Shown: positions 813-54,945, counted from the first letter of the stretch. The stretch: 64,000 nt of DNA from an uncultured virus (IMG/VR IMGVR_UViG_3300034120_000663) (IMGVR_UViG_3300034120_000663), one strand, 5' to 3'. Notes: a model not told the origin generated them from the sequence alone. Made by a program: numbers and translations.

Positions 813-1032
813 ATGCCTGTCCCCTCGTCAGGGGACTATGGGTGCCGGATTCCGCCCGGTCAGGCCGAAGGCCTCAGTACAGGGAGAGAGAGAGGGAGGG
901 AGGGGGTACTGCTCGGCATGGATGGGTGCTGCTCGGCACCGCTCGGCACTTGCTACCCAGCACGGCCGTAGGCCCGGCAGCAAGTGCACACAGCGGCCGT
1001 AGGCCCGTGGGGCTGCACTCACCACGCACAAC

Positions 1033-1576
1033 GTGACGCTCGTCACACCGTAGGCCCATTCGACGGGCCATGTGACGATCGACACACCGTGTGACGCCCG
1101 ACACATGCCATGTGACGTTCGTCACACCTGCGAGAAGGCCGCTCTGTGGGCCTCTGATCGAAGCACCCCCTCTTGCGCCCCCGTCATACCAATCGATAGG
1201 AGATCGGCCCTTAGAAACGATCCTCACAGGCTGTGGATTTCGGCCAAATATGCCCATCTACCAGGGCGTTTCCTTGTGGATAAGGGGTCGAATCTGTTTC
1301 GCACAATCCACAGGCTTATCCACAACTTATCCCCAGACATGTCGGTAGGTACATGGCGTGACGTTCGTCACATGCGCTCGTTCCCCCACTCGGGGGACAC
1401 CCCCACCCTTAAACGGCCTCGCCGTGGCGGAGGCGTGGCAGGGGCCACTCGCTACCGACCATTGCCTACACCAATAGGCCCATTCCAATGTGACGTTCGA
1501 CACGCCCTACCCCCCCCCTACTTGATGTGACGTTCGACACACGCACGTCCGATAGGCCCATCCTGACGCACGACAC
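1033..1576. promoter_or_regulatory. Cluster of GTGACG-N2-CG(T/A)CAC palindromes (CRP/FNR-family box type TGTGA-N6-TCACA)
   Basis: Copies at 1033, 1072, 1091, 1112, 1358, 1490, 1527 and a degenerate one at 1563. Confidence 0.7.
1232..1335. promoter_or_regulatory. DnaA-box cluster
   Basis: Perfect TGTGGATAA 1275-1283 and TTATCCACA 1316-1324; TTATCCCCA 1327-1335; two-mismatch boxes at 1232-1240 and 1304-1312. Confidence 0.6.
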
Positions 1577-1604
1577 CGCTTATCAACACGGATAGACTCT
1601 CTAT

Positions 1605-2378
1605 ATGCGGTATTACATCCAGCGACCTGCAAACTCATACGGCTCGGTTGACGTGCACGTACTGAGCGATAAGCGCACTACGGAAACGATTGACACGTGG
1701 GACGGACCAGAAGTAGCGGATGTTGCTGCTACTGGCAACGTGAGGGTAAGTTCACCTCGGGAAGAGCCGAACTTCAACACGGTGCAGCGTCCTGTGCTTA
1801 ATGCACGGGGAGAGTTTGAGTACCAAGACAATGGTCTCGTCAAACGGGAAAGCGTGTACAGATCAACGAAGGAGTGGGGTAACCCAACTGAACTGTTCAC
1901 GCACCACTCACCAGTGGTGCAAGAGGCATTCGTCGATCCCTCGCTGCGCCATGCACTACCCACGATGGTCGGTATGGCTATGAATGCAATGGGAGCAGGC
2001 GGTGACACTCCTGTGGCGGCAAATGACCTATCCAAGTGGTCAAGTACCTTGTCTAGGAAGGCCGCTAAGCGTGGACTGACAAAGGGCCACCCAGAGAACG
2101 TGAACATGAGCGTTACGAACAGCATCGACATGTATCCAAGGCATGAGCGCATGTACCACACCAACGATGCTGGTGAGCGCATTCCTACCTTCCAGGTAGA
2201 CGGTGCTAAAGAGGCAACTCCAGAAGAGGTGTCGGCTGCTCGTTCTTGGGTAAAGAGCCGTGTGAAAGGCAAACGAGGAGAGCAATTTAAGGACGTTGAG
2301 GACGGTCTATCGGTTTCTCAGCGTGAATGGCAGGCACAACGTATCAACCCAGGCCCAGGTCAGGAGTCACTGTTCTAA
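1605..2378 (+). CDS. Hypothetical protein, degenerate GNAT-like; paralog of 2851-3612; C-terminal QESLF
   Basis: 257 aa; shares ELFTH..PV..A..DP.LRH..PTMVG.AM...SSTLSR.A..RGL with the paralog; probably leaderless (TAGACT 1593-1598). Confidence 0.75.
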   Translation: MRYYIQRPANSYGSVDVHVLSDKRTTETIDTWDGPEVADVAATGNVRVSSPREEPNFNTVQRPVLNARGEFEYQDNGLVKRESVYRSTKEWGNPTELFTHHSPVVQEAFVDPSLRHALPTMVGMAMNAMGAGGDTPVAANDLSKWSSTLSRKAAKRGLTKGHPENVNMSVTNSIDMYPRHERMYHTNDAGERIPTFQVDGAKEATPEEVSAARSWVKSRVKGKRGEQFKDVEDGLSVSQREWQAQRINPGPGQESLF

Positions 2379-2851
2379 TGACTCTTGGACCGCAATTTCA
2401 ACCGTTTGGTGACATACGTGACGACGATCCAAATGTCCGCAAGTACACCCCTGAAGGAAGCAAACGGAGTTTTGAACTCCGCCATGAATACGGGTCAGTA
2501 GTCTCTCGTCAGATCGGGAAACCGGACGACATTCTTCCTGGTGGAAGGGCTGTGAAACGAGTTTCTGGAATACTTGGCACGTGGGGGGATAATGACAGTA
2601 GGGAAGTACTGCACGTTCAGGTGAACACAGGGTTTAGGGGAATGGGTATTGGTGCTGCCATGCTGTCGATGGCGCAAGAGAAGTACCCAAGCCTTTCCCA
2701 CAGTACCCAATTGAGCGCAGAAGGGGCGCGGTTTGCCCACGCAAACCCACTTCCTGGTGATACAGAGAAGACGAAGAAGGCACAAGCAAGGAAGTTGACT
2801 GCCGATGCTGCCACCACAATGCTCGGTGGGCCACGGAGAACGGGATTCTAA
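2378..2851 (+). CDS. GNAT-family acetyltransferase
   Basis: Acetyl-CoA motif A VQVNTGFRGMGIGAAML; start taken at the TAATG overlap at 2378. Confidence 0.75.
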   Translation: MTLGPQFQPFGDIRDDDPNVRKYTPEGSKRSFELRHEYGSVVSRQIGKPDDILPGGRAVKRVSGILGTWGDNDSREVLHVQVNTGFRGMGIGAAMLSMAQEKYPSLSHSTQLSAEGARFAHANPLPGDTEKTKKAQARKLTADAATTMLGGPRRTGF

Positions 2852-3612
2852 TGGCTATTCGATACTTTAGAAACATAAAGGGCGGTGGTTACTCCCTCTT
2901 TAACGGCTCTTCTATTGAAGCAGTTTCTGACAAGCGCCAACCGGATGGATACCCCTACGCAAGAGTAACGCTTGAGCCATCATTTGAGTCACCGAACTTT
3001 GAGCACAAGATCACGTCGCACACTCCTACGGAGACTCTTGTTGAGTCGATCACGAACCCGAACTTCAATCCAAAGAAGGAACTCGTTACCTCTTCCGCTT
3101 ACGGGTATATGAAGGGTAGTGAGGATGAACATCCCAGTGAATTGTTCACTCACGTGCCTCCAGTCATCGATGTTGCCTATTCTGACCCCAAACTACGTCA
3201 CGTAATGCCAACAATGGTCGGAATTGCCATGCATGAACTCGGCGCACAGCACGACGTACCAATGGCGAGCGGAACTCTGTCCCCCTTCTCCTCTACGTTG
3301 TCACGTAATGCGGTAAGTAGAGGGCTTGCAGTGCCCAACTTCTCCAATAGAAACATGGAAACAGGGCAGGACACCTACTCGGAGGATGGAGAAGTGCAGA
3401 AATACGCTGCTCCTAAGCGGGAACACATGCCTGAAATGCGTAAAGAAACTACCGGACCACTGTGGGCTGACGAAAAAGTGCCTGAAGAGCGTGTCAACCA
3501 AGGCAGACAGTGGGTTCGTGACCGCATTTCTGCTTCACGTGGCATTTCTCAGCGGGATAAGCCACAAGTTAACCGTGGTGACAGCCAATTTGAGCAATTA
3601 AAGTTGTTCTGA
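2851..3612 (+). CDS. Hypothetical protein, paralog of 1605-2378; C-terminal QLKLF
   Basis: 253 aa, TAATG-coupled, clear similarity to 1605-2378. Confidence 0.75.
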   Translation: MAIRYFRNIKGGGYSLFNGSSIEAVSDKRQPDGYPYARVTLEPSFESPNFEHKITSHTPTETLVESITNPNFNPKKELVTSSAYGYMKGSEDEHPSELFTHVPPVIDVAYSDPKLRHVMPTMVGIAMHELGAQHDVPMASGTLSPFSSTLSRNAVSRGLAVPNFSNRNMETGQDTYSEDGEVQKYAAPKREHMPEMRKETTGPLWADEKVPEERVNQGRQWVRDRISASRGISQRDKPQVNRGDSQFEQLKLF

Positions 3613-3776
3613 CAGGTGTTACTCGTGCTAGTGAGGGCAGTGAAGTGATACGTGTGGGGAACGTGACGTGGGTGTCGGGAAAAAATCCGGCCTGTAAACA
3701 GTACTTCTACGCTAGGAAAGCGCTAAAGTCGGGCATCAGCCCAGGCAACCGCTGGGAAGACGACCAGCAAGGATAG

Positions 3777-4418
3777 ATGATGAGTTCAACCTCTAAATCA
3801 CACATGTCATCCGGTCAGTTCGCTGAACAACTTCCTATGTTCATGTCTGCGCGTGAGATCCAGTCCCAATTTGCCCCACTGTCTTACGACAAGGTCGATA
3901 AGTATGACAACGGCTGGCGAGAAGAGACAGACGACGAGTTGTGGGATCGCAAACTGGACGAATCTCAGTTGAGCAAGGCTGACTATGAAAGTACGCACCA
4001 CGGTCGGGAGTACTACCGTGTGCTCCAGTCTCAGATGAGCAAAATGCCAAGCAGCCAGTTCAATGTGAGTAGGCGAACCGGTGAAGGCACGTACACGTAC
4101 CAAGACCGAAAAGAAGACGAGCGTGTAGCAGCAGCGGATGAGCACATCAACTCATACGAATCGTCGCTGTACCACCACCTATCTACTGGTGGGGACATTC
4201 CTCCTGTGCACCTTGGTCACGACCCTCTAGAGGCACCTGGGTCAGGTAAGGGCAAGACCGTCCTTGGCGGGCACCACCGCATTGCAGCACTGGCAGAGGC
4301 AGACCCAGATCGTCTGATCGCAGTCCTTCACACCGAAGGTACTGTTCCTCGGGATGCCGGTCACCCAGGTATCTTTGGTGGCCAGCGAAACCCGAAGAAT
4401 CCGTACAAGTACACCTGA
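3777..4418 (+). CDS. ParB/Srx N-terminal-like domain protein
   Basis: PPVHL...VLGGHHRIAAL motif. Confidence 0.6.
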   Translation: MMSSTSKSHMSSGQFAEQLPMFMSAREIQSQFAPLSYDKVDKYDNGWREETDDELWDRKLDESQLSKADYESTHHGREYYRVLQSQMSKMPSSQFNVSRRTGEGTYTYQDRKEDERVAAADEHINSYESSLYHHLSTGGDIPPVHLGHDPLEAPGSGKGKTVLGGHHRIAALAEADPDRLIAVLHTEGTVPRDAGHPGIFGGQRNPKNPYKYT

Positions 4419-4422
4419 TTCC

Positions 4423-4680
4423 GTGGCGGCTTCTGACAACCTAAATCCGTCACAGATGCGTTTGGTGAAGACCAAGAGCATCCCAAACGTAGATGACGAG
4501 CGTCTGACTGATTCGCTGATGCGCATTCATCAGTCTGTCCACACCGCTGAAGGGCTTCACACTTGGGATAAGCCTCGTCGTGGTCTGTACGACCTTGGCA
4601 TGAAGGCGCTTAAGATCAAGAAAGAACTTGATAAGCGCAATGTGTCATCGCCAGTCAATGACTGCAAGTGGTGTTCTTGA
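4423..4680 (+). CDS. Hypothetical protein with C-terminal CxxC
   Basis: GTG start just after the previous stop; MAASDNLNPSQM...DCKWCS. Confidence 0.6.
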   Translation: MAASDNLNPSQMRLVKTKSIPNVDDERLTDSLMRIHQSVHTAEGLHTWDKPRRGLYDLGMKALKIKKELDKRNVSSPVNDCKWCS

Positions 4681-4692
4681 TACTGTAGTGCT

Positions 4693-5445
4693 ATGAGAAA
4701 GCGCCAGTTCATCGATGTGTTCCACGCCAGTCGCTCAAGGACTCCCCCGCACCTGACGGAGCACCCTAGTGGCGACAGCATGTACTCGCCTACTCAGCAG
4801 TTCATTCTCCGCAACACAGATTTCCCTGAGGGCGAGTCAATGGTGTCGAAAGACACCTTTAGTGGCATGTATGGTGGAGGGTTATCCACCACAGCAGACT
4901 ACGTATCATCTGGTTCTGATCGCGCAGAGTTCGCTGACAAGACGATCTTCACTGGAACACCGCACACAGTGGGCGCTATGATACAAGGAGAGCAGGGCAC
5001 CGACGCCGAGGGAGGAAGGAACTACGTACACCACTACAGAGTGCCCACGTCTTCCATTTCTCCTGAAATCTACGCTGACGATGACGCCTACAGAACGCCA
5101 ACCCTTTCATCAGGGGCCACGCCTACTCTCTGGGAAAGCATCCCACTTCGGCGTAGCCAAGTACACAAGATGCAAAAAGTGGTTCAAATGCGAAACAACG
5201 TGGAGGGGCCGGGAGAGATTAGCCACGTTATTCCAAAAGAACACATGGGCAAGTTGGGTATTCAATTCGTAGGAACCAGTGCCACCGCCGATTGGAACAA
5301 GCGCTACGGGTCACAGTCCACAGAACCGTCATCTGACAACCCAGTGAGCGGTACTGGAGATGTCAGAAAAAGTGTTACCGTTTCTGACAACCAGGAAGAG
5401 CCTCGTAGAAAAGAACTGCCTGGGCAACTTCAGTTAGACATCTAA
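4693..5445 (+). CDS. Hypothetical protein, possible ADP-ribosyltransferase-like fold; C-terminal QLQLDI
   Basis: VFHAS...IFTGT...YVHHYRVP...RNNVEG..EISHVI pattern; probably leaderless (TACTGT 4681-4686). Confidence 0.55.
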   Translation: MRKRQFIDVFHASRSRTPPHLTEHPSGDSMYSPTQQFILRNTDFPEGESMVSKDTFSGMYGGGLSTTADYVSSGSDRAEFADKTIFTGTPHTVGAMIQGEQGTDAEGGRNYVHHYRVPTSSISPEIYADDDAYRTPTLSSGATPTLWESIPLRRSQVHKMQKVVQMRNNVEGPGEISHVIPKEHMGKLGIQFVGTSATADWNKRYGSQSTEPSSDNPVSGTGDVRKSVTVSDNQEEPRRKELPGQLQLDI

Positions 5446-5455
5446 GGAGAACAAC

Positions 5456-5734
5456 ATGCCATCAATCGAACGCTCTGGAGAGACATTCTCCGGCTACAAC
5501 AAGCCGAAGCGCACACCAGATCATCCAACGAAGTCGCACGCTGTACTCGCCAAGGAAGGCGATAAAGTAAAGTTGATCCGCTTCGGGCAGCAGGGCGTTT
5601 CTGGTTCCCCAGAGCGCAAGGGCGAGTCAAAGGCTGATGAGAACAGACGTGACTCATTCAAGGCACGTCACGCTAAGAACATCGCCAAGGGCAAGATGTC
5701 CGCAGCCTACTGGGCTAACAAAGAAAAGTGGTAG
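5456..5734 (+). CDS. Small basic conserved phage protein
   Basis: AGGAG RBS; KLIRFGQQG...RRDSFKARH...SAAYWA pattern I recognise from many phages. Confidence 0.75.
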   Translation: MPSIERSGETFSGYNKPKRTPDHPTKSHAVLAKEGDKVKLIRFGQQGVSGSPERKGESKADENRRDSFKARHAKNIAKGKMSAAYWANKEKW

Positions 5735-5746
5735 GAAGGAACTTCT

Positions 5747-6235
5747 GTGGAAGAGTACGACTGGGAAAGCATTGCCCATCTAAGTCAACAGTTTCACCCA
5801 TTCCACAGACCTGCTCGTCTGTACGGAGCAGGTGAGGCCGGGATTGATCGCATCTTTGGGCCTGCTCCTACAGCACCCACTCCGTGGCAGAGCGCCGGGA
5901 AGTCTAAGAAGTACGGACTACTACACCCAGACGAGAAGGATGCGATTGCCTCTGAACTTAGCCGTCAGCCGCCAAGTTTGGTTGAGTTCGACCCTCGTCC
6001 ACTACTAGCGTCTCAGCCGAGCGTGGTACAGCATCATCTTCGGCACTACATGGGGCGAAACTACGATCTAACGGGACAGACCGCTGCTGACCAAGGTAAC
6101 GTTGGCAACAGGTTCCCAGTGATCCTGCACCGCCCGTCTCGTAACCAGAACATCATTCTGTCTGGTCATCACCGAGCGACGGCTGCACTGTTGAAAGGTG
6201 TTCCACTCCGTGCATTACGCGTTGAAGGCCAGTAG
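5747..6235 (+). CDS. ParB/Srx N-terminal-like domain protein
   Basis: LLASQPSV...FPVIL...IILSGHHRATAALL. Confidence 0.65.
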   Translation: MEEYDWESIAHLSQQFHPFHRPARLYGAGEAGIDRIFGPAPTAPTPWQSAGKSKKYGLLHPDEKDAIASELSRQPPSLVEFDPRPLLASQPSVVQHHLRHYMGRNYDLTGQTAADQGNVGNRFPVILHRPSRNQNIILSGHHRATAALLKGVPLRALRVEGQ

Positions 6236-6257
6236 CCCATTTGAGTATGAGAAGACG

Positions 6258-6503
6258 ATGATCTCTGTTACACCACTCCTCCACATCGGTGATACATGCG
6301 GCGAACTGCCGATTGCTGTAGAGACCGACAGTTACAGTGAAGCCGCAGCATTCATGCTGCTTGGACTCACCACGCTGGTGCCCACACCAGAGGTAGCAAT
6401 TGACACGCTAGGCGTGTTCATGTCCCGAGAACGAGCGGAAGAACGGGTACGTTCTATCATTGAGTTCGATTTCCAGGGCTTTCCTTCACCCACTGCACCC
6501 TGA
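6258..6503 (+). CDS. Hypothetical protein
   Basis: Open frame filling the gap in the + strand operon; start uncertain. Confidence 0.5.
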   Translation: MISVTPLLHIGDTCGELPIAVETDSYSEAAAFMLLGLTTLVPTPEVAIDTLGVFMSRERAEERVRSIIEFDFQGFPSPTAP

Positions 6504-6511: not shown

Positions 6512-6913
6512 ATGCAGATCAAGGGTTCGGATATTCGTTGGCTTCGCCTTGCCATTCTTCAGGCTGAGCAGGCACCACACGCACAATGGCGTGTTGGCGC
6601 AGTGCTCGTCAGAGGAGGAAGCGTCCTGTCGTCGGGGTTTAATCGCTACAGGAATGACCCATCTCTGGTGGAACTGGACGGGGTCTCCTATCACGCTGAA
6701 GAGGCCGCTATTCGTCGGGCAGGAGATCCAGACGGAGCGACTCTGTACGTTGCGCGCATCAAGAGAGATGGCGATCTAGGCATGGCAAAGCCTTGTCAAA
6801 AGTGCCAGCAGATTATCCTTGACACGGGCGTGCACACTGTTGTGTGGTCAACCTCTGAAGGACTCTCTAAGGAGAGAACGCCTGCGCTCTGTGCAGACCG
6901 TCTTGCCGTGTGA
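6512..6913 (+). CDS. Cytidine/dCMP deaminase-family zinc protein
   Basis: HAEEAAI and KPCQKC zinc-binding motifs. Confidence 0.85.
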   Translation: MQIKGSDIRWLRLAILQAEQAPHAQWRVGAVLVRGGSVLSSGFNRYRNDPSLVELDGVSYHAEEAAIRRAGDPDGATLYVARIKRDGDLGMAKPCQKCQQIILDTGVHTVVWSTSEGLSKERTPALCADRLAV

Positions 6914-6969
6914 TAATTTGCTGGTGTAGAGCCAAGCGCTTCAACTCTGCCGTCGAACAAGGTGAACAC

Positions 6970-7878
6970 ATGAAGGTACTGATCACGGGAAGTAGTGGGT
7001 TCGTTGGAAGTCACTTCCGTAAGAAGTTAGACGACGGAACAAACGACCTGCTGTGTCTAGACGTAAAAGACGGAGTAGTCCTAAAGGAGTTCCTGAACAC
7101 GCAGGATTGCCGTGAGTACTTTAGGGCAAACAACACGCAGTTTGATCTAGTGATCCACTGCGCCGCTGTAGTAGGCGGAAGAACGATGATTGAGAACAGT
7201 CCGTTCTTGCTAGCAGCAGAGGATCTCAGCATCGACGCTGAGATGTGGCGATGGGCCGAGCGCACTAAGCCGAAGTACACTGTGTTCTTCTCCTCATCCG
7301 CCGCCTACCCCATTGCTTTTCAGCGAAGTGAATACAACATCTCTCTGAGAGAGGATCACATCGATCTAGACGCTGTGCGCAACCCAGACTTCACATATGG
7401 ATGGGTTAAGTTGACCGGTGAAATGATGGCCAGGGAGTACAGCAACCTTGGGCTAAAGGTGTTGGTTCTTCGACCTTTCAGTGGATACGGAGAAACACAG
7501 GACATGTGCTACCCGTTCCCTTCGTTTGCCTGGCGGGCAGCAGTTAAAGAGTCACCGTTTGCCATCTGGGGTGATGGCACTCAGGTTCGTGACTGGGTGC
7601 ATATTGACGACATCGTTGATGCAGTTCTGACAATGCACCAGCAGGATGTTGCTGGCTTAGCGGTCAATATCTCTACCGGAGTAGGAACTTCCTTCAACGA
7701 GTTAGCAAGTATGATGATGAAAGAGGCCGGTTACTCTGCTCCCCTTCATCATCTGCTTGACGCACCAAAGGGCGTCATGCACCGCGTTGGGTGCCCTGAT
7801 CGCCTTAACTCTTTCTATACGCCAAGAGTTACCCTTGAGGAGGGCATTAGGCGATGCATCAAACACTTCCTACACTAG
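6970..7878 (+). CDS. NAD-dependent nucleotide-sugar epimerase/dehydratase
   Basis: MKVLITGSSGFVG, SSSAAY, YGWVK, GDGTQVRDWVHIDD. Confidence 0.92.
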   Translation: MKVLITGSSGFVGSHFRKKLDDGTNDLLCLDVKDGVVLKEFLNTQDCREYFRANNTQFDLVIHCAAVVGGRTMIENSPFLLAAEDLSIDAEMWRWAERTKPKYTVFFSSSAAYPIAFQRSEYNISLREDHIDLDAVRNPDFTYGWVKLTGEMMAREYSNLGLKVLVLRPFSGYGETQDMCYPFPSFAWRAAVKESPFAIWGDGTQVRDWVHIDDIVDAVLTMHQQDVAGLAVNISTGVGTSFNELASMMMKEAGYSAPLHHLLDAPKGVMHRVGCPDRLNSFYTPRVTLEEGIRRCIKHFLH

Positions 7879-8555
7879 GAGTTCTAGTTCCATCAAGAGG
7901 CCGTCCCGGCAACGTTGGCCCTTTGATTGAGAGTTTCCATACTCGTAAAAACGAGGGCACTGAACTGCTCATCATCATTGATGACGACGATGACACATAT
8001 GAGCAGTACCACTGGGAGTGGGATCTTCACAGAGGATCACTCGTGGGTGCTCTTCTTACGACAGAACGCCTTCGTCTTGGTGGAACGCTGAACAAGTTCG
8101 GCCCAGAGATGGCTAATAGGTACGACATTGTCGGCTTTATGGGCGACGATCATCGTCCACGTACTGAAGGATGGGATGTGGAGGTAGCGAAAGCGTGCGC
8201 TAACACTCCCAATGCAGTAGTTTACGGAAACGACCTGTTGCAGGGACAAGCACTAGCGACTGCTGTGTTCATGGACTCTGCCATTATTAAGGCTCTTGGA
8301 TACATGGTGTTCCCAGGCGGCGTACACCTATTCTTCGACAACTTCTGGATGGACATTGGCCGTGGCCTTGGTACTTTGACGTACCTTAGCGACGTAATCA
8401 TCGAACACGTTCATCCCTCCGCTGGCAAGGTGGAGTGGGATCATGGGTACAATGAGGTTAACTCAAGCGATACCTGGATTATGGACGAAAACACATACAA
8501 AGAGTATGTGGCGTATCAACTCTCAAATGATGTGCAGAGAGTACGGTCTTACTGA
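7854..8555 (+). CDS. Glycosyltransferase (GT2/GT-A)
   Basis: VLVPSRGRP, IIIDDDD, FMGDDH, IIEHVHP. Confidence 0.8.
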   Translation: MHQTLPTLGVLVPSRGRPGNVGPLIESFHTRKNEGTELLIIIDDDDDTYEQYHWEWDLHRGSLVGALLTTERLRLGGTLNKFGPEMANRYDIVGFMGDDHRPRTEGWDVEVAKACANTPNAVVYGNDLLQGQALATAVFMDSAIIKALGYMVFPGGVHLFFDNFWMDIGRGLGTLTYLSDVIIEHVHPSAGKVEWDHGYNEVNSSDTWIMDENTYKEYVAYQLSNDVQRVRSY

Positions 8556-9109
8556 TGATTATCAGACTAAGACCCGACTACTCAGAGTCAGAACTCCAAG
8601 AAATCTACGCTAGGCCCAACGATTACACGAACTGGGACTATCACGTACATAGAGTCAATTTGACCATTTCCTTGGGCCTTCAGTTCTTCCGCAAGAACGA
8701 GGGTGTGGTAGTTGACCTTTCGGCAGGTGCCAGACCAGACATTGCGTACGCTTTCAGCGATTCACCTGTACTAGGTGATTACTCTTACCGTGATGGGTAC
8801 CACTACCACGGGAAGATTGAAGACGCAATTAAGAACGTTGGGTCACCATTAGTTGATCTATTCATCCTCTCTGAGACCATTGAGCACGTGTCTGAGCCTG
8901 TTCGTCTTTTAGAAGAGATTAGGGCTAGGTCAAAGAAACTAATCTTGTCAACTCCTGATGGAGAGATAGACTCCAGCAAGCATGAGCATTACTGGGGCTG
9001 GGATGTTGAGGGGATGAGAGAGATCCTTCAATCCTCGGGGTGGCGTCCGCTTATAGTCACTACTATGGATATGAGCGGCATTAAGACACAAATATGGGTG
9101 TGTGAGTGA
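8555..9109 (+). CDS. SAM-dependent methyltransferase-like protein
   Basis: VVDLSAG, SETIEHV, LILSTP; resembles the next gene. Confidence 0.65.
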   Translation: MIIRLRPDYSESELQEIYARPNDYTNWDYHVHRVNLTISLGLQFFRKNEGVVVDLSAGARPDIAYAFSDSPVLGDYSYRDGYHYHGKIEDAIKNVGSPLVDLFILSETIEHVSEPVRLLEEIRARSKKLILSTPDGEIDSSKHEHYWGWDVEGMREILQSSGWRPLIVTTMDMSGIKTQIWVCE

Positions 9110-9705
9110 TGGAGACCAGACTCTTTCCAGAAGGAACGATTCCTGAATACACAACAGATGCGTGGTACGCAGAGAGGGAAAGCGCTCCGCACGTTGATCA
9201 GGATGCCCATCGGCCTCGGCTAGACGTAGCCGCACAGTTCGTGGTTCAGGCGTACGAACCGGGAATGATTGTTGTCGATCTCGGTTCTGGTGACGGAGGA
9301 CTACTATGGTTGATCTCTTCTCAGGTTCCACCCCATCTACGCTGGGGCTACGACCTTCAGCAAAGTAACGTCGATGCTGCCGCTGCTCGCGGTCAGAACG
9401 TCATGTATGGAAACGTATTAACCGACGATATTTCATACGGGGACATATGCGTTACCACTGAGATGCTTGAACACCTCATTGACCCGCACGCGTACGTACG
9501 GCACCTGTCTTCAAAGGTGAAGTACCTAGTAGCAAGTTCTCCTGCATTTGAGACCGCTGACGCCCACTATGAGTACCACACGTGGGCGTGGGATAAAGAC
9601 GGATACGCTGAGATGCTCGTAAACAATGGCTTTAGCGTTGTTCGACATGACATTGTCGGACCATTTCAAGTAGTACTGGCAATCAGCACTCATCTTGACG
9701 TGTAG
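9106..9705 (+). CDS. Class I SAM-dependent methyltransferase
   Basis: VVDLGSGDGGLL, TEMLEHLIDP. Confidence 0.85.
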   Translation: MMETRLFPEGTIPEYTTDAWYAERESAPHVDQDAHRPRLDVAAQFVVQAYEPGMIVVDLGSGDGGLLWLISSQVPPHLRWGYDLQQSNVDAAAARGQNVMYGNVLTDDISYGDICVTTEMLEHLIDPHAYVRHLSSKVKYLVASSPAFETADAHYEYHTWAWDKDGYAEMLVNNGFSVVRHDIVGPFQVVLAISTHLDV

Positions 9706-9707
9706 AA

Positions 9708-10376
9708 ATGTCAACCCCTGTATTCGTAATTGTTCGTGATCGTCTTGAACAACTCAAGAAAACGATTACTGGCCTGGAGAAGGCGCAGGGAATTGACCTT
9801 GTCCTTGTAGACAACGACTCTACGTACGAGCCGACTGTTGAGTACCTACGCCAATCGCAGCACCAAGTGATCTTTACGGGCAGTAACCACGGACATCACA
9901 GTCCGTGGATTCTTGGCTTACTCCCAGAGATCGGCCCGTTTGGGCTTACTGACCCAGATGTATGTCCAGTAGATGAGTGCCCCACAGACTGGCCTGAGAA
10001 GATGCTAGGCGTGCTGCATCGACATGAGCGTCTAATCAAGACTGGGTTCTCTCTGCGGATCGACAACATCCCAGACCACTACCTCTATAAAGACCACGTG
10101 ATCCATCATGAAACCCAGTTCTGGGTAGGTGGTCTTCTAGAAGAGTGGGAAGACGGAACTAAGGTACATGACTCCGCTGTTGACACTACTATGGCGTTCT
10201 ACCGCAACAGAAACGCCGGTTGGGACATCTGGCCATCAGCACGACTAGGTTGGCCCTATACCGCTGAGCACCTTGCTTGGTATGTAGATTCAGCGAATCT
10301 TCTAGAAGACGAGATCTACTACCGGCAACACTGCGATAAGAACGTCGCTTCTTGGAAGTACAACGAGGAACACTGA
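9708..10376 (+). CDS. Glycosyltransferase (GT2-like)
   Basis: VFVIVRDR, LVDNDSTY, TDPD, AVDTT. Confidence 0.8.
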   Translation: MSTPVFVIVRDRLEQLKKTITGLEKAQGIDLVLVDNDSTYEPTVEYLRQSQHQVIFTGSNHGHHSPWILGLLPEIGPFGLTDPDVCPVDECPTDWPEKMLGVLHRHERLIKTGFSLRIDNIPDHYLYKDHVIHHETQFWVGGLLEEWEDGTKVHDSAVDTTMAFYRNRNAGWDIWPSARLGWPYTAEHLAWYVDSANLLEDEIYYRQHCDKNVASWKYNEEH

Positions 10377-10996
10377 TGGAACTGGCACACTTTTACCACG
10401 TCTACGCACTTGGGCAGTGGGAGCATGTGGTTGATCATCACATTCGTGCCCTCAAACGAAGCCCGGTAGGTGCAATCCCTACGTACGTAGGAGTAGTAGG
10501 CGACGCTGGCCCGGTTCTTCGCCGTCTAGCGGATAACGACATTCACGCTAACCTCGTTGCCAACAGTGACGAGGGGTGGGAGCAACTTACCCTCAATGCT
10601 TTGTACGAGTGGTCTGTTGCCAGAGAAGGGCGAGAATCGTACGTGTTGTACACCCACACCAAAGGGGCTGGGTGCGATTACCCGTTACAGGCAACGTGGC
10701 GCAACGAGATGGAATACTGGAACGTAGTCAACGCTGACAAGGCACTTGAAGTTCTGGATTCTGGAGCCTCTACAGCAGGTGTACACTATGTGAGTGGTCT
10801 TCCAGGGCAAGACCCCTACTTTGGGGGCAACTACTGGTGGGCAAGGTCATCGTGTCTTTCCGTGATCGGCCCGCCTGAGATGAACACTAGGTATGATGCC
10901 GAAGTGTGGATTGGGCGAGTTACTCGTCTCGTTCCCGGTTCATTCGCAGTCGATCTAAGCCACACACCAATCGGCCACGGCGCACCAGAGGTGTAG
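10376..10996 (+). CDS. Putative glycosyltransferase
   Basis: HFYHVY, EQLTL, LYTHTKG, FGGNYWWA; TGATG-coupled. Confidence 0.6.
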   Translation: MELAHFYHVYALGQWEHVVDHHIRALKRSPVGAIPTYVGVVGDAGPVLRRLADNDIHANLVANSDEGWEQLTLNALYEWSVAREGRESYVLYTHTKGAGCDYPLQATWRNEMEYWNVVNADKALEVLDSGASTAGVHYVSGLPGQDPYFGGNYWWARSSCLSVIGPPEMNTRYDAEVWIGRVTRLVPGSFAVDLSHTPIGHGAPEV

Positions 10997-24131: not shown

Positions 24132-24355
24132 CCATGCCCTTCTTTCGCAAGAAGCCAACTAAGAAAGTAAGAGTTTCTCGTATCCAAAAGATGTCAACCC
24201 CCGATCTGATCAGTTGGGCTGACGTAGTCATCATGCACCTCGGTAGATCATTTGATCAATGGAGGTACAAAGAGGGTGACATTGAAGAGGTGCGCTCTCA
24301 CGTGACTGCACTTACAGATATCTTGGCGGAAATTGAGGACCGAGCAAATGGTTGA
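24128..24355 (+). CDS. Hypothetical protein
   Basis: ATGA-coupled, directly upstream of the terminase. Confidence 0.65.
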   Translation: MTMPFFRKKPTKKVRVSRIQKMSTPDLISWADVVIMHLGRSFDQWRYKEGDIEEVRSHVTALTDILAEIEDRANG

Positions 24356-25898
24356 CGTTCTCGCAGAGTTACCTGACGAGCAGTACGAGGAACTAGACGA
24401 AACGTCTGCCGAGTTCCTTGACTCCCTGGTCAAGCGCCTCCTCATATTCACAGAGGAGTTCTGTGACGTAGAACTGTTTCCGTACCAGATACCAATCGCT
24501 TACCGCTACATTGAGTCACTCATTATTGGTGACGGTGAAGAGTTCACTCTTATCGCCTGCCGTCAGTCAGGTAAGTCGGAAGTGTTGTCGAACGTCATTG
24601 CGGCGATGATGGTCATTCTCCCTAAGTTGGCACCTATCTATCCAACTTGGTTGTCCAAGTTCTCCAAAGGTCTATTCGTCGGCGTGTTTGCTCCTGTAGA
24701 GGATCAAGCAGAGACCATCTTCGGTCGTGTTGTTTCTAAGTTGACCAGCGAGCATGCACTGGACTTCCTGCTTGACCCAGAACTGGACGACAAGGCGGCT
24801 TCCGGTGGTGCCCGTGGTAAGGGCAAGATCATCACGCTCAAGAAGAGCGGGTCTCATTGCCGCATGACCACGTGTAACCCAAAGGCCAAGATTGAGTCGA
24901 AGACGTACCACCTGGCCCTAGTAGACGAAGCACAGGGTGCAGACAGCACCATGATCACTAAGAGCATCAAGCCGATGTTGGCGTTCAACAACGGAACTCT
25001 CGTGCTGTCCGGTACAGCCACGCGAGAGAAGTGCTACTTCTATAACATGATCCAGTACAACAAGCGGCGTGACATCAACGGTAAGCGTGGGCATCGTCAA
25101 AGTCACTTTGAATACGACTACAAGGTCGCAAGCAAGTACAACCCAAACTACGCCAAGTTCATCGCGAAAGAGAAACTGCGGCTAGGCGAGGACTCCGATG
25201 AGTTCCGCATGTCCTACAAGAACGAGTGGATTCTTGAGAAAGGCATGTTCGTTACAGAAGACCGCCTTAATTCGCTCTACGACGAATCGATGTCGTTCGT
25301 TCGTCAGTGGTGGAAGACGCCTATCGTTGCAGGCATCGACGTAGCGAGAAGTAACGACTCAACCGTTGTCTGCGCCGTGTGGGTCGACTGGGACCACCCA
25401 GATGGTCTTGGGTTCTACGAGCACCGTGTGCTGAACTGGTTGGAAATCAATAACGTTGAATGGGAGCAACAGTACTTCCAGATAGTTGACTTCTTACGCA
25501 ATTACGACGTACTGCGGGTAGGGGTCGACTCTCAGGGCGTGGGCGGTGCTGTAGCGGAACGATTGGCCCTACTGCTCCCGCACATTGAGGTAACCCCCAT
25601 CTCGTCTGACTCAAAGGCACAGAACGACCGATGGGTGCACCTCACTGAACTGATTCAGCGAGAACAGATTCTGTTTCCTGGTCATAGTAAGGCAAAGCGC
25701 ACCAAGGCTTGGAAGAAGTTCCACCAGCAGATGTCAGACCTAGAGAAGGTCTACCGTGGAAAGTACATGCTGGCTGCTGCTCCCAACGAGCGCAACGCCT
25801 ATGACGACTTCCCAGACGCTCTTGCCATCGCCTGCTCTATGACCCAGTACGACACTATGCCAACGGTTCAAGTGTTTGAATCACCCTTTTACAGATAG
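24348..25898 (+). CDS. terL: Terminase large subunit
   Basis: CRQSGKS Walker A, LVDEAQ Walker B, GIDVA and DDFPDA nuclease motifs. Confidence 0.92.
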   Translation: MVDVLAELPDEQYEELDETSAEFLDSLVKRLLIFTEEFCDVELFPYQIPIAYRYIESLIIGDGEEFTLIACRQSGKSEVLSNVIAAMMVILPKLAPIYPTWLSKFSKGLFVGVFAPVEDQAETIFGRVVSKLTSEHALDFLLDPELDDKAASGGARGKGKIITLKKSGSHCRMTTCNPKAKIESKTYHLALVDEAQGADSTMITKSIKPMLAFNNGTLVLSGTATREKCYFYNMIQYNKRRDINGKRGHRQSHFEYDYKVASKYNPNYAKFIAKEKLRLGEDSDEFRMSYKNEWILEKGMFVTEDRLNSLYDESMSFVRQWWKTPIVAGIDVARSNDSTVVCAVWVDWDHPDGLGFYEHRVLNWLEINNVEWEQQYFQIVDFLRNYDVLRVGVDSQGVGGAVAERLALLLPHIEVTPISSDSKAQNDRWVHLTELIQREQILFPGHSKAKRTKAWKKFHQQMSDLEKVYRGKYMLAAAPNERNAYDDFPDALAIACSMTQYDTMPTVQVFESPFYR

Positions 25899-26437: not shown

Positions 26438-26797
26438 ATGGCAAAGGACACAGCACAGGTGTCCTTTGCTGACGTTGCGTCGTCGTTTCGACGCATGCGA
26501 ACTGATGAGTTCAATAGCGGTCACGGGCGTCAAGACATGATCGACATCTCTGTCCCCAGTGCGTACGTATCCACTCCACGTGAAATGGTGTCTCAGCCCA
26601 AGGCAATGGAAGGCATGGGGGAGTTTGTAGTTGATCCCATGCAGAACCTCATTCCAGAGGGATTGCCGCTAGAGGGTCGTTCACGTAGTGACTACGCTGC
26701 AAGTACTAGCGTCACCAGTGACCCCCTATCAACATCTCGTCTCCGCTCTCGTGGAGTAGCCGTATACAACAAAGAGGCACGTAGTGGCAAAGCGTAA
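26438..26797 (+). CDS. Hypothetical protein
   Basis: Open frame in the operon; start uncertain. Confidence 0.5.
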   Translation: MAKDTAQVSFADVASSFRRMRTDEFNSGHGRQDMIDISVPSAYVSTPREMVSQPKAMEGMGEFVVDPMQNLIPEGLPLEGRSRSDYAASTSVTSDPLSTSRLRSRGVAVYNKEARSGKA

Positions 26798-28244
26798 CGA
26801 CCAAGCGCCTGAGCGGGTTACCAGAGCACCTGACGACCGTCCTCTTCAATGGTCCGACATGGACGAAGTCGGGCAAAAAGTCGTCTCTTCAAACATGGCG
26901 AACTGGGGCAAGGCAAAGACCACTGCCAAGAAGGCAAAAGCAACCATGCTTTCCCGTCGCGCCTCAGCATTAGCAGCATCAACAGATGAATCACTTCCTG
27001 AGAAGAAGCAGGAATCTGCTAAAAAAACAGCCAAAGGTATGGACCGGTCACTTGCTGCTTTAGGCGAGGTCAGCCCACATCTAAAGGACGTTCCCGTAAC
27101 GCTAGATACTGCTGCCAATCGACGCGTACAACTAATTCGTGGGTCTGCTCGTCGGGCTTCGCAGCAAAGTGGTCTTGGTCTTGGTGGGGGATCGGCACTA
27201 CGGGCTGCTGGTGTTGGTTGGTACTTCGACCACAGGCAGCAGTTGAATGACATCGCAAGTCAACACGGTATTGACGAAGATTCAATCGTTACTGCCTCCG
27301 CTGTAATGTCTCCCTCCAATAGTCCTGACAGGGAGAAGTCGGCAGTTGGCGCTTTAGCGCATATGCACAGCACAAACCCAACTCTTACATTGAGCGCTCA
27401 CGCTCAGAAGAAACTAGGTGTGAAGCGCTCGTCACTCACGTTCAGTGAGTTGACATCTCAGCAGGCGTCGTTGATCGGTAGTCCATCCTTGCGTGAGCAC
27501 ATTGGTGGAGTAGATAAGAACGTTCTGACCCAGTGGGCCAATGGCGGCACTAACGAGAACATGGCTAAGGCTGTTGATGTTGTTCGTGGGAACATCCACC
27601 ACAAAGACGCCATTAACCCACACAGCGCACCGAAGGTGTGGAGTTACCGGGACAGCATCAGCAAGGCCATTCCAGGCAGCAACGAGCACATGGAGTACAT
27701 GTCTCGTGCTCAAACTGCGCTGTTTGAACTTCCTGGGCAGACTCGTCTAGATCTCTTCGGACTTCAGTCCTCTACTGAAGGAATCCTTAGTCCTACCAAG
27801 TCCACTGCTGAGGACACGTGGGAAGGCGCTGTTACATCAGGTCAACAGTTAGAGAGCGTTGGGCGTCGTACGCACAAGCAGTCCCCCGCTAAGTTCGTGG
27901 CATCTGATAAGGCGTTTACTGACCAACTCAAGAAGACCGCTGTCATCAACAAGAAGAAAGTCAGCGCAATCGCTGACCCACGTATTGGGGCTAACGCCAC
28001 CACACACGCCTTCCATAATGAAGCAGTCATCAGAGCAGCGTCACAGTTGTCTGACACATCGGGAGAGATCATCCCCTCGGTGCTCGCTCAAGAAGTTCCC
28101 TGGACTGAGTCCCGCAGAATCGCTAGTAAGGATATTCCTTACGAAGGGTTCATCTCAGGGATTGACGCGCAGGCAAAGCAGTCCCGCTCCGATCACTTTA
28201 ATACTGGTAAGGGCGGTTCACCCAAACAACTATCACTATTCTGA
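26784..28244 (+). CDS. Hypothetical protein, DUF7178/HhH-glycosylase-like; C-terminal QLSLF
   Basis: GWY...SAVMSP...PKVWSY..SI...TAEDTW pattern. Confidence 0.6.
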   Translation: MAKRNDQAPERVTRAPDDRPLQWSDMDEVGQKVVSSNMANWGKAKTTAKKAKATMLSRRASALAASTDESLPEKKQESAKKTAKGMDRSLAALGEVSPHLKDVPVTLDTAANRRVQLIRGSARRASQQSGLGLGGGSALRAAGVGWYFDHRQQLNDIASQHGIDEDSIVTASAVMSPSNSPDREKSAVGALAHMHSTNPTLTLSAHAQKKLGVKRSSLTFSELTSQQASLIGSPSLREHIGGVDKNVLTQWANGGTNENMAKAVDVVRGNIHHKDAINPHSAPKVWSYRDSISKAIPGSNEHMEYMSRAQTALFELPGQTRLDLFGLQSSTEGILSPTKSTAEDTWEGAVTSGQQLESVGRRTHKQSPAKFVASDKAFTDQLKKTAVINKKKVSAIADPRIGANATTHAFHNEAVIRAASQLSDTSGEIIPSVLAQEVPWTESRRIASKDIPYEGFISGIDAQAKQSRSDHFNTGKGGSPKQLSLF

Positions 28245-29395: not shown

Positions 29396-31081
29396 ATGCC
29401 TATTGATTTCTGGAGTCCATCTGCTCGTGCTGCCTCCTCCGACTTGGCTGTATCAGTCAGTCCACTCGGCCTCGTTGAACTTGCAGACGAAGAGTTTGAA
29501 GTTCACGGGCCTCGCCTTAATCGCTATGCAGCAGAGTGGGCATGGTATCTAGGCCACCACTGGTCGTATCGCCGTGAGATGGGCGAGCAGAACATCACGC
29601 TGAACTACGTTCGCACGCTCGCTGACTACGTGATCAACTTCGCCTTTGGCAAGGGGATTGAGTTCCATTGCCCAGAGCAGAACAACGCCATCATTCCTCA
29701 TCTGCTCCAGCAGGTATGGGAAGTGCACAACTACAAGCACTCAATCCTTTGGGAGATGGGGCAACTAGGCGTCGTTACTGGTGACTGCTTCGTAAAGGTG
29801 GCGTTTGAGGAGCCGTGGCAAGATCCCCTTGGGATTGTCCACGAGGGGAAGATTCGGATCATTCCGCTCAACCCATCATCTTGCTTCCCTGAGTATCACC
29901 CTCACGACCGTGATCGCATCATTCGCTTCAAGTTGAAGTACAGATTCTGGGGCACATCTCCAGAAGGAACCCGTCAGGTATTCACATTCACCGAGATCAT
30001 CACTGATGAGATGGTGGAGCAGTACATCAATGACGAACTCGTTGATCAGTACGAGAACAACATCGGTGCCATTCCTGTGGTGCACATTCCCAACGGGACT
30101 ATCTCGTCGTCTCCCTGGGGTTCATCTGCGATCTTTGACATCATCTCGCTGAACCGTGAGTTGAACGAGAAGATGACTGACATCTCGGACATCATCAACT
30201 ACCACGCTGCTCCGATCACGATCATTACTGGCGCTAAGAGCGACTCCCTTCAGCGTGGCCCGAAGAAGGTGTGGGGTGGTCTGCCGAAAGATGCCAACGT
30301 CTTCAACCTAGAGTCCCGTGGTGAAATGTCTGGCGCTCTAGAGTACGTGCAGTTCTTAAAGCGTGCCATGCACGAACATGTTGGCGTACCAGAAACCGCT
30401 CTTGGCCAGATGCAGCCGATCAGCAACACATCTGGTGTTGCCCTGGCGATCCAGTATCAGCCGATCATGAATCGGTACAGCATGATCAAGGTGAACTTCT
30501 CAAAGGGTCTAGAGAAGGTAAACGAACTGATCATCCGTACCGCTGCGGTATTCCGCCCTGACTTGCTTCAGTACGATCCAAGCAAGGCTTCTATGCCTGA
30601 GCCTGATCAGGCAACCATGCTTGATCCGACTGACCCAACGACGTATCGAACTACCTGTCATTGGCCAGAGCCTCTTCCTGTCGACGTGCTCATCAAGTTG
30701 AACGAGGTGCAGGCCAAGATGGGTCTTGGTCTTGAGTCGAAACTAGGAGCGCTTCGCATCTTGGGGGAGAAGTTCCCCAATGAAAAGATGGACGAGATCT
30801 TTGAAGAGTTGCAGAAGGATGCTCTAGATCAAGGTGCTCTTGATATGCTAAGGGCACAAATATCGCAGGCTGTAATGCTGGTAACGGGTATGATCCCAGG
30901 GCCAGATGGCGCAGCGCAAGTCGCATCAGCAGGTGGCCCCGATGTCACCGCCGCTGGTCAGGGAGGTAGCCCACTTCCTGGCACCCAAGTTGGGGACGCA
31001 GAGGGCCAAATGATTAACAAACTTGTGCAGAGGGCGTACGGTGCAAGGTTTGCACAACGGCGCGTTCCAGACGAAGAATAA
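29396..31081 (+). CDS. Portal protein
   Basis: 561 aa before scaffold and capsid; NYV..LAD, GVVTGD.FVKV, IPVVHIPN, SNTSGVAL. Confidence 0.88.
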   Translation: MPIDFWSPSARAASSDLAVSVSPLGLVELADEEFEVHGPRLNRYAAEWAWYLGHHWSYRREMGEQNITLNYVRTLADYVINFAFGKGIEFHCPEQNNAIIPHLLQQVWEVHNYKHSILWEMGQLGVVTGDCFVKVAFEEPWQDPLGIVHEGKIRIIPLNPSSCFPEYHPHDRDRIIRFKLKYRFWGTSPEGTRQVFTFTEIITDEMVEQYINDELVDQYENNIGAIPVVHIPNGTISSSPWGSSAIFDIISLNRELNEKMTDISDIINYHAAPITIITGAKSDSLQRGPKKVWGGLPKDANVFNLESRGEMSGALEYVQFLKRAMHEHVGVPETALGQMQPISNTSGVALAIQYQPIMNRYSMIKVNFSKGLEKVNELIIRTAAVFRPDLLQYDPSKASMPEPDQATMLDPTDPTTYRTTCHWPEPLPVDVLIKLNEVQAKMGLGLESKLGALRILGEKFPNEKMDEIFEELQKDALDQGALDMLRAQISQAVMLVTGMIPGPDGAAQVASAGGPDVTAAGQGGSPLPGTQVGDAEGQMINKLVQRAYGARFAQRRVPDEE

Positions 31082-31990: not shown

Positions 31991-33067
31991 ATGGCCCTTC
32001 CAGCCCCTTCCGGTGGTGCTCTTACTAGCACCGCTAGCATTTCAGCCACTGGCTACAACTCAAGTAGCGCACTGACTCCTGCTATTCAGACGATCTGGTC
32101 AAAGGAAATCCTTTTCCAGGCCATGCCCGTTCTGCGCTTTGAGCAGTTCGCAGTGAAGAAGACTGAACTGGGTGTCATGCCCGGTCTCACGATCAACTTC
32201 ATGCGCTACAACAACCTTGCTACCAACGCTTCGGCAGGTGCAACCCTGAACGAAGGCGTTCGTATGGAGCCAGTGGCTCTGTCCGCTAGCCAGATCCAGA
32301 TCACCGTCAAGGAACAGGGTCAGGCCGTCGCCGTTACCGAACTGCTGCTCAACGCATCGTTCGATGACGTGATGGCATCAAGCAGCCGTCTGCTCGGTCG
32401 CCACATGGCTCAGAGCATGGACATCCAGGCTCGTAACACCCTGTACCAGAACGCTGTTCCCTTCGGTGGCGGCTCAGCCGTTCCCCCGAACATCGTGTTC
32501 GGCCGTAACGCCCCTGCTAGCCGTGGTGCTCTCAGCCCCTACGACTACACCACTGCTCCTACGGCAGCATCAGCCGCTGGCTACTTCTCGCCAGCAACTG
32601 TCAAGGACGCTGTCGACGTACTGGCCAGCCAGAACATCCCCCGTCTGGGCGACACCTACGTCTGCTTCGTTCACCCCAAGCAGGCACGTGCCCTCCGTGA
32701 CTGGCCCGAGTTCATCGAAGTCACGAAGTACGCCGCTCCCGGCAACTTCATGCTCGGTGAGATCGGTCGCCTGTACGACGTGGTGTTCATTGAGACCACC
32801 CAGGTTCTCCAGGGTGCTCTCGCATCGTCAGGCATCAACAACAGCCTGACGACGCTGACCAACGCCAACACCTACAACGCTGTGATGATCGGTGACAACA
32901 CCTTCGGTCACGCTATTGCCCTCCCAGTGGAACTGCGTGACGGCGGTGTCATCGACTTCGGTCGTGAGCACGGCCTCGCCTGGTACGCCATCTGGGGCTT
33001 CGGTATGATCACCCACGAGAGCCGTGTTCTCATCAACACGCTCGGCGGTTCGATCTACGGCGGCTGA
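31991..33067 (+). CDS. Major capsid protein (N4-gp56-like family)
   Basis: IWSKEILFQA, FVHP.Q, GEIGRLYDVVFIET, DFGREHGLAWY; strongly biased codons. Confidence 0.92.
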   Translation: MALPAPSGGALTSTASISATGYNSSSALTPAIQTIWSKEILFQAMPVLRFEQFAVKKTELGVMPGLTINFMRYNNLATNASAGATLNEGVRMEPVALSASQIQITVKEQGQAVAVTELLLNASFDDVMASSSRLLGRHMAQSMDIQARNTLYQNAVPFGGGSAVPPNIVFGRNAPASRGALSPYDYTTAPTAASAAGYFSPATVKDAVDVLASQNIPRLGDTYVCFVHPKQARALRDWPEFIEVTKYAAPGNFMLGEIGRLYDVVFIETTQVLQGALASSGINNSLTTLTNANTYNAVMIGDNTFGHAIALPVELRDGGVIDFGREHGLAWYAIWGFGMITHESRVLINTLGGSIYGG

Positions 33068-54729: not shown

Positions 54730-54792
54730 CTCAGTTAGCGAATTTCTTAGAGAACTACAACATTTCTGCTCAGATCACCAGCCCCCAAGGGT

Positions 54793-54879
54793 GTGCCCAA
54801 CGTCACATCATGTGACGCTCGTCACCCTCAAAGTAGTGCACGTACTACACTAATTCGGGTGTCATGTGACGAACGTCAC
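54793..54879. promoter_or_regulatory. Three more CRP-type palindromes
   Basis: 54793-54806 (degenerate), GTGACGCTCGTCAC 54812-54825, GTGACGAACGTCAC 54866-54879. Confidence 0.65.
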
Positions 54880-54945
54880 ACCCCCAATCCCCTCAAATAG
54901 TTGCTATCGCTCTATAGCGTAGTAGCACATAGTTATTGTGTTGAG

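Follow-up and report, generated by a model that had tools for sequence, protein, structure and literature searches.

A candidate sliding-clamp-binding peptide on unrelated enzyme-like proteins of an uncultured myovirus

Pol II, Pol IV, Hda and MutS are examples of cellular proteins that are clients of the bacterial β sliding clamp, DnaN. The clamp-binding consensus is QL(S/D)LF at C-termini, with acknowledged variability (PMC9690074). KLRLF is given as the clamp-binding consensus of Streptomyces NucS (bioRxiv 10.1101/2023.12.20.572499), and the phage Mu protein MuC binds Escherichia coli DnaN through QHDLF and QPDLF, the consensus of its family being Qx[D/E][L/M]F (PMC12867686). Peptides of this kind are found on five proteins encoded in a 64,000-nucleotide stretch of DNA from an uncultured virus (IMG/VR IMGVR_UViG_3300034120_000663), hereafter the window. 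Four of the genes form a cluster at positions 1605–5445, and the fifth lies at 26784–28244 (Table 1). That cellular polymerases and repair proteins carry clamp-binding peptides is well established, and a recent study showed them on MuC, a transcription factor; here such peptides occur on several unrelated, uncharacterized enzyme families of one phage. The reading that we favor, with moderate confidence, is that the peptide is a β-clamp-binding motif carried by at least four unrelated protein families, which would tether phage enzymes to host DnaN.

A peptide shared by four protein families

When the open reading frames (ORFs) of the window were re-read, all five peptides and their ORFs were located exactly as an earlier note on this DNA had placed them. 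KQLSLF, EQLKLF, GQESLF, GQLQLDI and EQLPMF match the QL[S/D]LF or QLxLxL consensus (PMC9690074). Among 78 plus-strand ORFs of the window, called greedily, four end in Q..[LM]F or Q[LM].[LM].[LIF]. Two of these four are paralogues (32% identity), so that the independent cases number three at the C-terminus and one at the N-terminus. In a simulation that sampled six residues from the composition of each protein, the expectation was 0.013 such endings per proteome, and 0 of 20,000 trials reached two; the overall density of the pattern (9 in 19,935 residues) predicts 0.035 at C-termini. Four endings were thus observed against 0.013–0.035 expected, in line with the earlier note's view that such an accumulation is unusual. 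The Streptomyces phage LuckySocke, processed alike as a control, has no ORF ending in the motif (0/207), and its sole N-terminal pattern match is an unannotated 67-aa antisense ORF. The terminal motif is real and is no general property of this phage group. No further motif-ended ORFs were found in 14.2 kb upstream or 10 kb downstream of the window.

The motif is conserved among homologues, as would be predicted from the earlier note, in 11/11 sequences of the family of the 257- and 253-aa proteins, 53/72 relatives of the 486-aa protein, the single non-self relative of the 250-aa protein, and 101/149 relatives of the ParB-like protein. Across families the peptide follows the grammar Q-[L/M/G/E]-x-[L/M]-F or the six-residue form QLxLx[I/L/F]. 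The C-terminal cases are preceded by basic, variable linkers, often with PG directly before the Q and often with QF or HF upstream. This upstream QF or HF, 1–16 residues before the core, recurs in three unrelated families (DSQFEQLKLF, PQFEQLPMF, SQQFEQLGLF) and may be a second contact element. Predicted structures indicate disordered tails, with pLDDT below 50 at residues 233–253 of the 253-aa model and 479–483 of the 486-aa model. Pfam, PHROGs and PADLOC assigned none of the five motif proteins to a family at default thresholds. At E ≤ 10, Pfam yielded only a weak GNAT match among these proteins and their neighbors, that of the product of 2378–2851, and a PDB sequence search with two of our profiles (A2 and A3) returned no match.

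The first and third genes of the cluster encode paralogues, A and B, of a family with a GNAT-like fold. The 253-aa protein (paralogue B) has nine relatives at 36–52% identity, and all 11 members of the family alignment, which includes both window paralogues, are motif-ended: QLKLF and QLNLGI three times each, QLSLGI twice, and QLKLL, QMELFG and QESLF once each. The QMELFG ending, in full PGQMELFG, belongs to a relative of paralogue A (P0006). Pentapeptide and hexapeptide forms swap among close relatives, as two published forms of the clamp motif would. Fold searches pointed to a GNAT fold for the two paralogues at middling Z, with ESCO1 as the top match. The earlier label "GNAT-like" has some support at the level of fold for the two paralogues, and a sub-threshold Pfam match supports it for the intervening 157-aa protein, but the paralogues themselves match neither a GNAT profile nor the acetyl-CoA motif A, no Pfam GNAT family appearing even at E ≤ 10. 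Alignment of the GNAT-fold profile against the 157-aa protein with hhalign gave a probability of 0.6%, which does not show relatedness. TAATG stop-start overlaps join 1605–2378, 2378–2851 and 2851–3612, and 2378–2851 is translationally coupled to both neighbors. A tblastn search with the 253-aa protein found no match in cultured phages.

The 486-aa protein consists of a helical hairpin, a core resembling HhH-GPD glycosylases, a basic disordered tail and the terminal QLSLF; its relatives start at the methionine encoded at 26802. Seventy-two relatives (one being its own cluster) were collected at 30–99% identity. The strict motif is present in 53 of them, as Qxx[LMF]F within 0–2 residues of the end in 44 and as a hexapeptide in nine (QLSLGI, QMSFAI, QMDFGF, QLSLGF, QLSFDL). 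Thirty-nine tails have QxxLF as their very last residues. L4 and F5 are common to all of these; at position 3 there are 19 S, 6 T and 5 E, and at position 2 there are 14 G, 7 L, 7 M and 5 T. An upstream [QHE]F lies within 16 residues of the motif in 25/54 relatives. The description of this protein as glycosylase-like finds some support at the fold level, the fold search having pointed to the HhH-GPD glycosylase/QNG1 (DUF2419) fold at middling Z. D344, K284, K370 and E304 are invariant in the family. Pfam DUF7178 is matched below the cut-off by 32/57 members and phrog_3842 by 19/57; tblastn against cultured phages found no match to the 486-aa protein.

Two related contigs from metagenome-assembled genomes (MAGs), L012 and L014, carry a 341–343-aa protein directly after the terminase gene (L012 3232–4263, L014 3275–4300). 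It has a HELGH metallopeptidase-like motif and an N-terminal GGPQF...QQGTLF.

The ParB-like protein, which carries its motif near the N-terminus, has 223 relatives at E ≤ 0.001. Among the 149 non-self relatives listed, 101 contain QLxMF[ML], nine start at MFM and probably have mis-called starts, 20 show variants, and 19 fail the pattern. The motif sits in a conserved element, QLxMFM[ST]xxEI. Within the family's GGHHRIA segment, H167 and R168 never vary, and G165 and H166 are each retained in 90% or more of the sequences. Leads from the Atlas comprised a neighboring cluster with ParB_N in 26% of its members and structure rows at TM 0.36–0.42. The name "ParB-like" draws on the GGHHRIA motif and these leads, but Pfam provides no match at E ≤ 10. 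A second conserved end was also observed: 59/149 relatives (within P0085–P0233) have aromatic-x-[Y/F]-[S/T/R/D/E] as their last residues, as in YKYT or YPYT. The ParB-like profile and the second, motif-free ParB-like protein at 5747–6235 gave a 17% probability in hhalign, which does not show relatedness.

The 250-aa protein has one non-self relative, at 53% identity, which ends in EVPGQLQMDI even though the preceding 40 residues have diverged. The two share the stretches FHAxR, TT and GEISHVIP, which no tool assigned. The suggestion that this protein is related to ADP-ribosyltransferases (ART-like) was not supported by Pfam, PHROG, PADLOC, PDB-sequence or Atlas searches: the PDB sequence search was without a match, and the Atlas search, with a poor Atlas model, gave no usable one.

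Table 1. Coordinates and properties of the motif-bearing proteins, neighboring genes, repeats and landmark genes of the window
Feature	Position	Strand	Remarks
Seven copies of 16-bp palindrome (TGTGACGNTCGWCACA)	1032..1541	.	In a 1.4-kb non-coding stretch just upstream of 1605
257-aa protein, paralogue A of the GNAT-fold-like family	1605..2378	+	Ends GQESLF; QESLF encoded at 2361-2375
157-aa weak GNAT-like protein	2378..2851	+	No clamp motif; Acetyltransf_7, E 0.014, 16 bits, below cut-off
253-aa protein, paralogue B of the GNAT-fold-like family	2851..3612	+	Ends DSQFEQLKLF; motif encoded at 3595-3609; tail 233-253 disordered
213-aa ParB/Srx-like protein (GGHHRIA)	3777..4418	+	EQLPMF at residues 17-22; QLPMF at residues 18-22, nt 3828-3842
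250-aa protein	4693..5445	+	Ends PGQLQLDI; motif encoded at 5425-5442
92-aa conserved small phage protein	5456..5734	+	No motif; phrog_7595 (E 7e-41); 70-residue segment of phrog_220
162-aa second ParB-like protein (SGHHRATAA)	5747..6235	+	No clamp motif; relative between terminase and portal in L012
Large terminase	24333-25898	+	Pfam; myovirus structural block
486-aa protein	26784..28244	+	Between large terminase and portal; ends KQLSLF; QLSLF encoded at 28227-28241
SPP1-type portal	29396-31081	+	Pfam
Capsid protein	31991-33067	+	Pfam
Sheath	37836-39410	+	Pfam; tube and baseplate proteins also assigned by Pfam
Three more palindrome copies	54792..54880	.	Gap between structural module and replication genes
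IstB/DnaC-like loader	56065-56694	+	Pfam; replication block
DnaB-like helicase	57127-58365	+	Pfam; replication block
Primase	59863-60771	+	Pfam; SNF2 helicase also in the replication block

Source phage and genomic setting

The window is part of an uncultured myovirus of about 90–115 kb, distantly related to Streptomyces phages of the BRock/LuckySocke type. By terminase, the nearest cultured relatives are the Streptomyces phages BRock, LuckySocke, Alone3, GiJojo and pSt2308, at 47–48% identity, and Streptomyces phages account for 6/15 records matched. The modules follow one another in LuckySocke as they do here: structural genes, loader, DnaB, primase, helicase, SSB, DNA polymerase I, RecA and Cas4 exonuclease. 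Every large ORF of the window is on the plus strand, its G+C content is 51–59%, and no tRNA genes were found in it. Megablast of positions 1500–6500 against cultured phages gave no match, and a related-locus search of viral contigs returned only identical copies of this same phage.

Several IMG/VR fragments hold identical pieces of the phage and supplied two flanks. The 14.2-kb upstream flank (L016) contains minus-strand genes, including those for an SNF2 helicase, an AAA_5 protein and a pyrimidine-dimer glycosylase. The 10-kb downstream flank (L017) encodes a family A DNA polymerase with 3′–5′ exonuclease, RecA, an HD protein and a SpoVS-like protein; the last of these is encoded at L017 17166–17444, downstream of the window (Pfam E 1e-19). 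CheckV rates fragments of 41–43 kb as 44–45% complete, so the roughly 88 kb seen would be most, not all, of the genome.

Eleven sites in the window carry the palindrome TGTGACGNTCGWCACA: seven ahead of the gene at 1605 and four, at 53537–54880, near the start of the replication module. Its strand-matches number 20 against 0.67 expected. The array is probably the operator of a putative regulator, and its distribution suggests that one regulator controls both the cluster and the replication block. The shared palindrome would point to co-regulation with replication rather than with head assembly, a link we infer from the repeat, no promoter having been identified.

Directly after the cluster, the 92-aa protein matches phrog_220 ("minor head protein and DNA pilot") over part of its length, and elsewhere it occurs as a small domain inside very large phage proteins. 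The gene run at 6512–10996, which encodes a deoxycytidylate-deaminase-like protein, a NAD-dependent epimerase, a glycosyltransferase-like protein (phrog_14945), a methyltransferase and several proteins of unassigned function, could form a pathway for modifying nucleotides, DNA or glycans. The replication module also contains at least four small paralogous genes at dispersed positions (58375–59854 and 62871–63107), sharing DIVERLR, EIERLRAAGD and a C-terminal AWREARRER. A fifth ORF (58634–59122) shares the first part of this sequence, and 63578–63844 only the end.

The probable receptor and competing explanations

Pfam found no clamp family among the 52 + 18 + 12 ORFs scanned (about 88 kb), and DNA_pol3_beta had no match in five related viral fragments. 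A phage-encoded clamp was considered as the receptor, and none was found in the 88 kb seen, with 5–25 kb lying outside it. Since the sequence seen contains no clamp gene and the phage polymerase belongs to family A, host DnaN is the simplest receptor and probably the target of the tails. The host is likely actinobacterial. We therefore compared the peptides with NucS, which was found in 13/41 Actinomycetota genomes sampled. All 13 NucS proteins have a hydrophobic x-L-F tail, at the extreme end in 11 and with 3–4 further residues in two. Position 2 is L in ten (as in KLRLF, ELKLF, DLTLF and ILRLF) and P or S in three (PTLF, PRLF, SRLF). The phage ending EQLKLF fits this actinobacterial pattern. 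In the mechanism that we propose, the hydrophobic cleft of the host DnaN ring would receive the tail, in the manner of the tails of Pol II, Pol IV, Hda, NucS and MuC, and each enzyme would be tethered to clamps loaded on DNA. The phage tails would compete with host clamp clients, and phage DNA could meanwhile be copied by the phage family A polymerase. DnaN binding, the host, the enzymatic activities and the effect of tethering are in this sense predictions. Phage ParB-like proteins were recently reported to activate post-replicative thymine oxidation in DNA (PMC13229309), which, together with the modification-type genes after the cluster, makes a clamp-tethered toolkit that modifies or attacks DNA plausible. 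Simple competition for the clamp cleft is a plausible alternative purpose. The earlier note's proposal that the phage directs several unrelated enzymes to the clamp is borne out as regards a conserved, portable linear motif on unrelated proteins that follows both the pentapeptide and hexapeptide consensus and sits at disordered ends, while its domain labels hold unevenly.

Several observations weigh against clamp targeting or limit it. The actinobacterial host is deduced only from the terminase identity to Streptomyces phages together with synteny, and the 5–25 kb of genome outside the sequence seen could hold a phage clamp. Nineteen of the 72 relatives of the 486-aa protein fail the strict pattern; 11 of these have nothing similar, and eight show near-forms (QLKLWG, PTLFD, QQSLRF, QTETLF, GQIEAFPNL, internal QLDLL, QFSML and QLSFL). 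The glycine at position 2 of many tails in this family is further from the textbook L. In the ParB-like family, QLxMFM[ST]xxEI is nearly invariant, a rigidity unusual for clamp motifs that may reflect another role. For this protein alone it is a serious possibility, somewhat short of an even chance, that QLPMF opens an N-terminal element with a structural or catalytic role, QLxMFM[ST]xxEI...Y.PLDGDR...ETDxELWxRK, and resembles the consensus by coincidence. Among the 100/149 relatives with the motif and at least six preceding residues, M4 is kept in 97, F5 in 100 and M6 in 96, and later residues are conserved too, a rigidity well beyond that of the C-terminal tails; some relatives moreover hold PMFM without the Q (HLPMFM, NMPMFM). 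On the other side, conservation in this family begins only with the QLxMF element, which follows a variable N-terminus of low complexity, [GP]QF[EHQK]QLPMF occurs in 29 of the 100 and resembles the GNAT-family tail DSQFEQLKLF, and 19 relatives have extra Qxx[LM]F or LFD copies upstream, as is typical of a linear motif. That all of the peptides resemble clamp motifs by chance has a negligible probability. Short motifs invite such a suspicion, which is refuted by their conservation in relatives of four families; the C-terminal enrichment and the absence of the motif from all 207 LuckySocke ORFs speak against it as well.

The peptide could instead be an address for a hub that the phage itself builds, for example the scaffold, the portal or the interior of the procapsid, and load the enzymes into the virion for injection with the DNA. 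They would then be single-domain counterparts of the "polyvalent proteins" packaged in phage heads, and later clamp binding in the next cell could coexist with such a role. Here the 486-aa gene lies within the head-morphogenesis block, between the large terminase and the portal, a position that also counts against clamp targeting. The same is true of the two MAG contigs (labelled Microthrixaceae and Saccharibacteria), in which the HExxH protein with GGPQF...QQGTLF, a ParB-like protein and a 486-aa relative ending in GQQSLRF or GQQSLGF all stand between terminase and portal. Weak BFVD fold matches beyond two close relatives are phage proteins of 670–1490 aa, one of them named ART-PolyVal-like, and the 92-aa neighbor of the cluster matches part of the head-protein family phrog_220. 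To our knowledge there is no precedent for a packaging peptide of this type, which counts against the idea. The repertoire of GNAT, ParB and peptidase domains is like that of polyvalent proteins predicted to be in capsids (PMC5512222), but the word "clamp" does not occur in that source. The peptide also fits the clamp consensus position by position, including the alternative hexapeptide, and holds to it across relatives of only 30–40% identity, whereas drift would be expected in a signal that rapidly evolving capsid proteins recognize; the cluster at 1605–5445 lies outside the structural block and has operator-like sites in common with the replication genes. Because the clamp grammar is followed across distant relatives and the main cluster is outside that block, we rate packaging lower and regard it as unlikely. 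It is likewise quite unlikely that the tails of several abundant phage proteins bind the host clamp merely to saturate its cleft, shutting off Pol III, repair and mismatch correction, with the attached domains of minor importance and the phage polymerase clamp-independent. Five motif-bearing proteins in one genome, and a family A polymerase with no clamp gene seen, would suit such a blockade; SocB stops elongation by binding the clamp through the usual motif (PMC9690074), and overproduction of MuC is lethal by way of its clamp motifs (PMC12867686). However, the attached domains are conserved, folded and enzyme-like, with invariant residues and a pLDDT of 94.5 in the 486-aa model, and a mere plug would not need them, as a small peptide-like protein would do.

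If the peptide does bind the clamp, a further step can be entertained, which we consider doubtful: the clamp may serve as a non-covalent assembly hub for a taken-apart polyvalent protein. A toolkit marked with the two-part tag QF...QLxLF would ride clamps, modify or attack DNA and replisome proteins, and starve host polymerases and repair, leaving the family A polymerase to work independently of the clamp. Such a toolkit would comprise the GNAT-fold, ParB/Srx-like, glycosylase-fold and HExxH-peptidase-like proteins as well as proteins of unassigned type, in an uncultured phage lineage with probably actinobacterial hosts.

Significance and comparison with described systems

The tag is conserved across many metagenomic relatives. 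If binding were confirmed, the DUF7178-like, GNAT-fold and ParB-like phage families would gain an initial clue to their function. Confirmation would also show that phages can direct a whole set of enzymes to replicating DNA or the host replisome by way of one universal host hub, and it would suggest an easy sequence criterion by which further proteins of this type could be picked out of phage dark matter. Two known themes are touched on as well: polyvalent effectors that are injected, and phage systems for ParB-assisted DNA modification. Our literature searches turned up MuC, Tn3 transposase, RecBCD, SocB and cellular clients, but no account of clamp motifs in phage proteins of the GNAT-fold, ParB-like or DUF7178-like families.

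Among cellular proteins, the DNA-acting enzyme NucS/EndoMS of the likely host phylum likewise carries an LxLF peptide at its very C-terminus, and the phage EQLKLF is close to ELKLF in one genome. NucS tails differ in usually lacking the leading Q, and NucS is a cellular repair nuclease unrelated to the phage proteins. Eco1/ESCO is a GNAT-fold acetyltransferase brought to replicating DNA by a PCNA-interaction peptide. A GNAT-like fold joined to a putative clamp-interaction peptide would be common to it and to the phage GNAT-fold-like proteins, for which ESCO1 is the top fold match. The cellular clamp clients resemble the phage families in motif grammar (consensus in PMC9690074), in the terminal placement of the motif and in the way five- and six-residue forms replace each other, but they are host replication and repair proteins, and the phage families have no detectable homology to them. 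SocB of Caulobacter, a toxin and not a polymerase, uses the usual motif to bind in the clamp cleft, thereby blocking replication (PMC9690074), but it is a single protein, a component of a chromosomal toxin-antitoxin system and not of phage origin.

A phage parallel is offered by the late-transcription activators MuC/Mor of phage Mu, non-polymerase phage proteins that have near-consensus clamp motifs at their N- and C-termini and bind host DnaN (PMC12867686). MuC is a small DNA-binding transcription factor for which binding is proven, whereas the present proteins are enzyme-like, belong to four unrelated families with several members in one genome, and are known from sequence. The polyvalent proteins of phages and conjugative elements described by Iyer et al. 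in 2017 (PMC5512222) are similar in their GNAT, ParB/Srx-like, metallopeptidase and possibly ART domains, in their occurrence in portal-terminase phages and in their predicted anti-host role. They fuse 2–15 domains in each polypeptide, whereas here the proteins are separate ORFs of 157–486 aa with one globular part each, and the same short tag marks separate domains.

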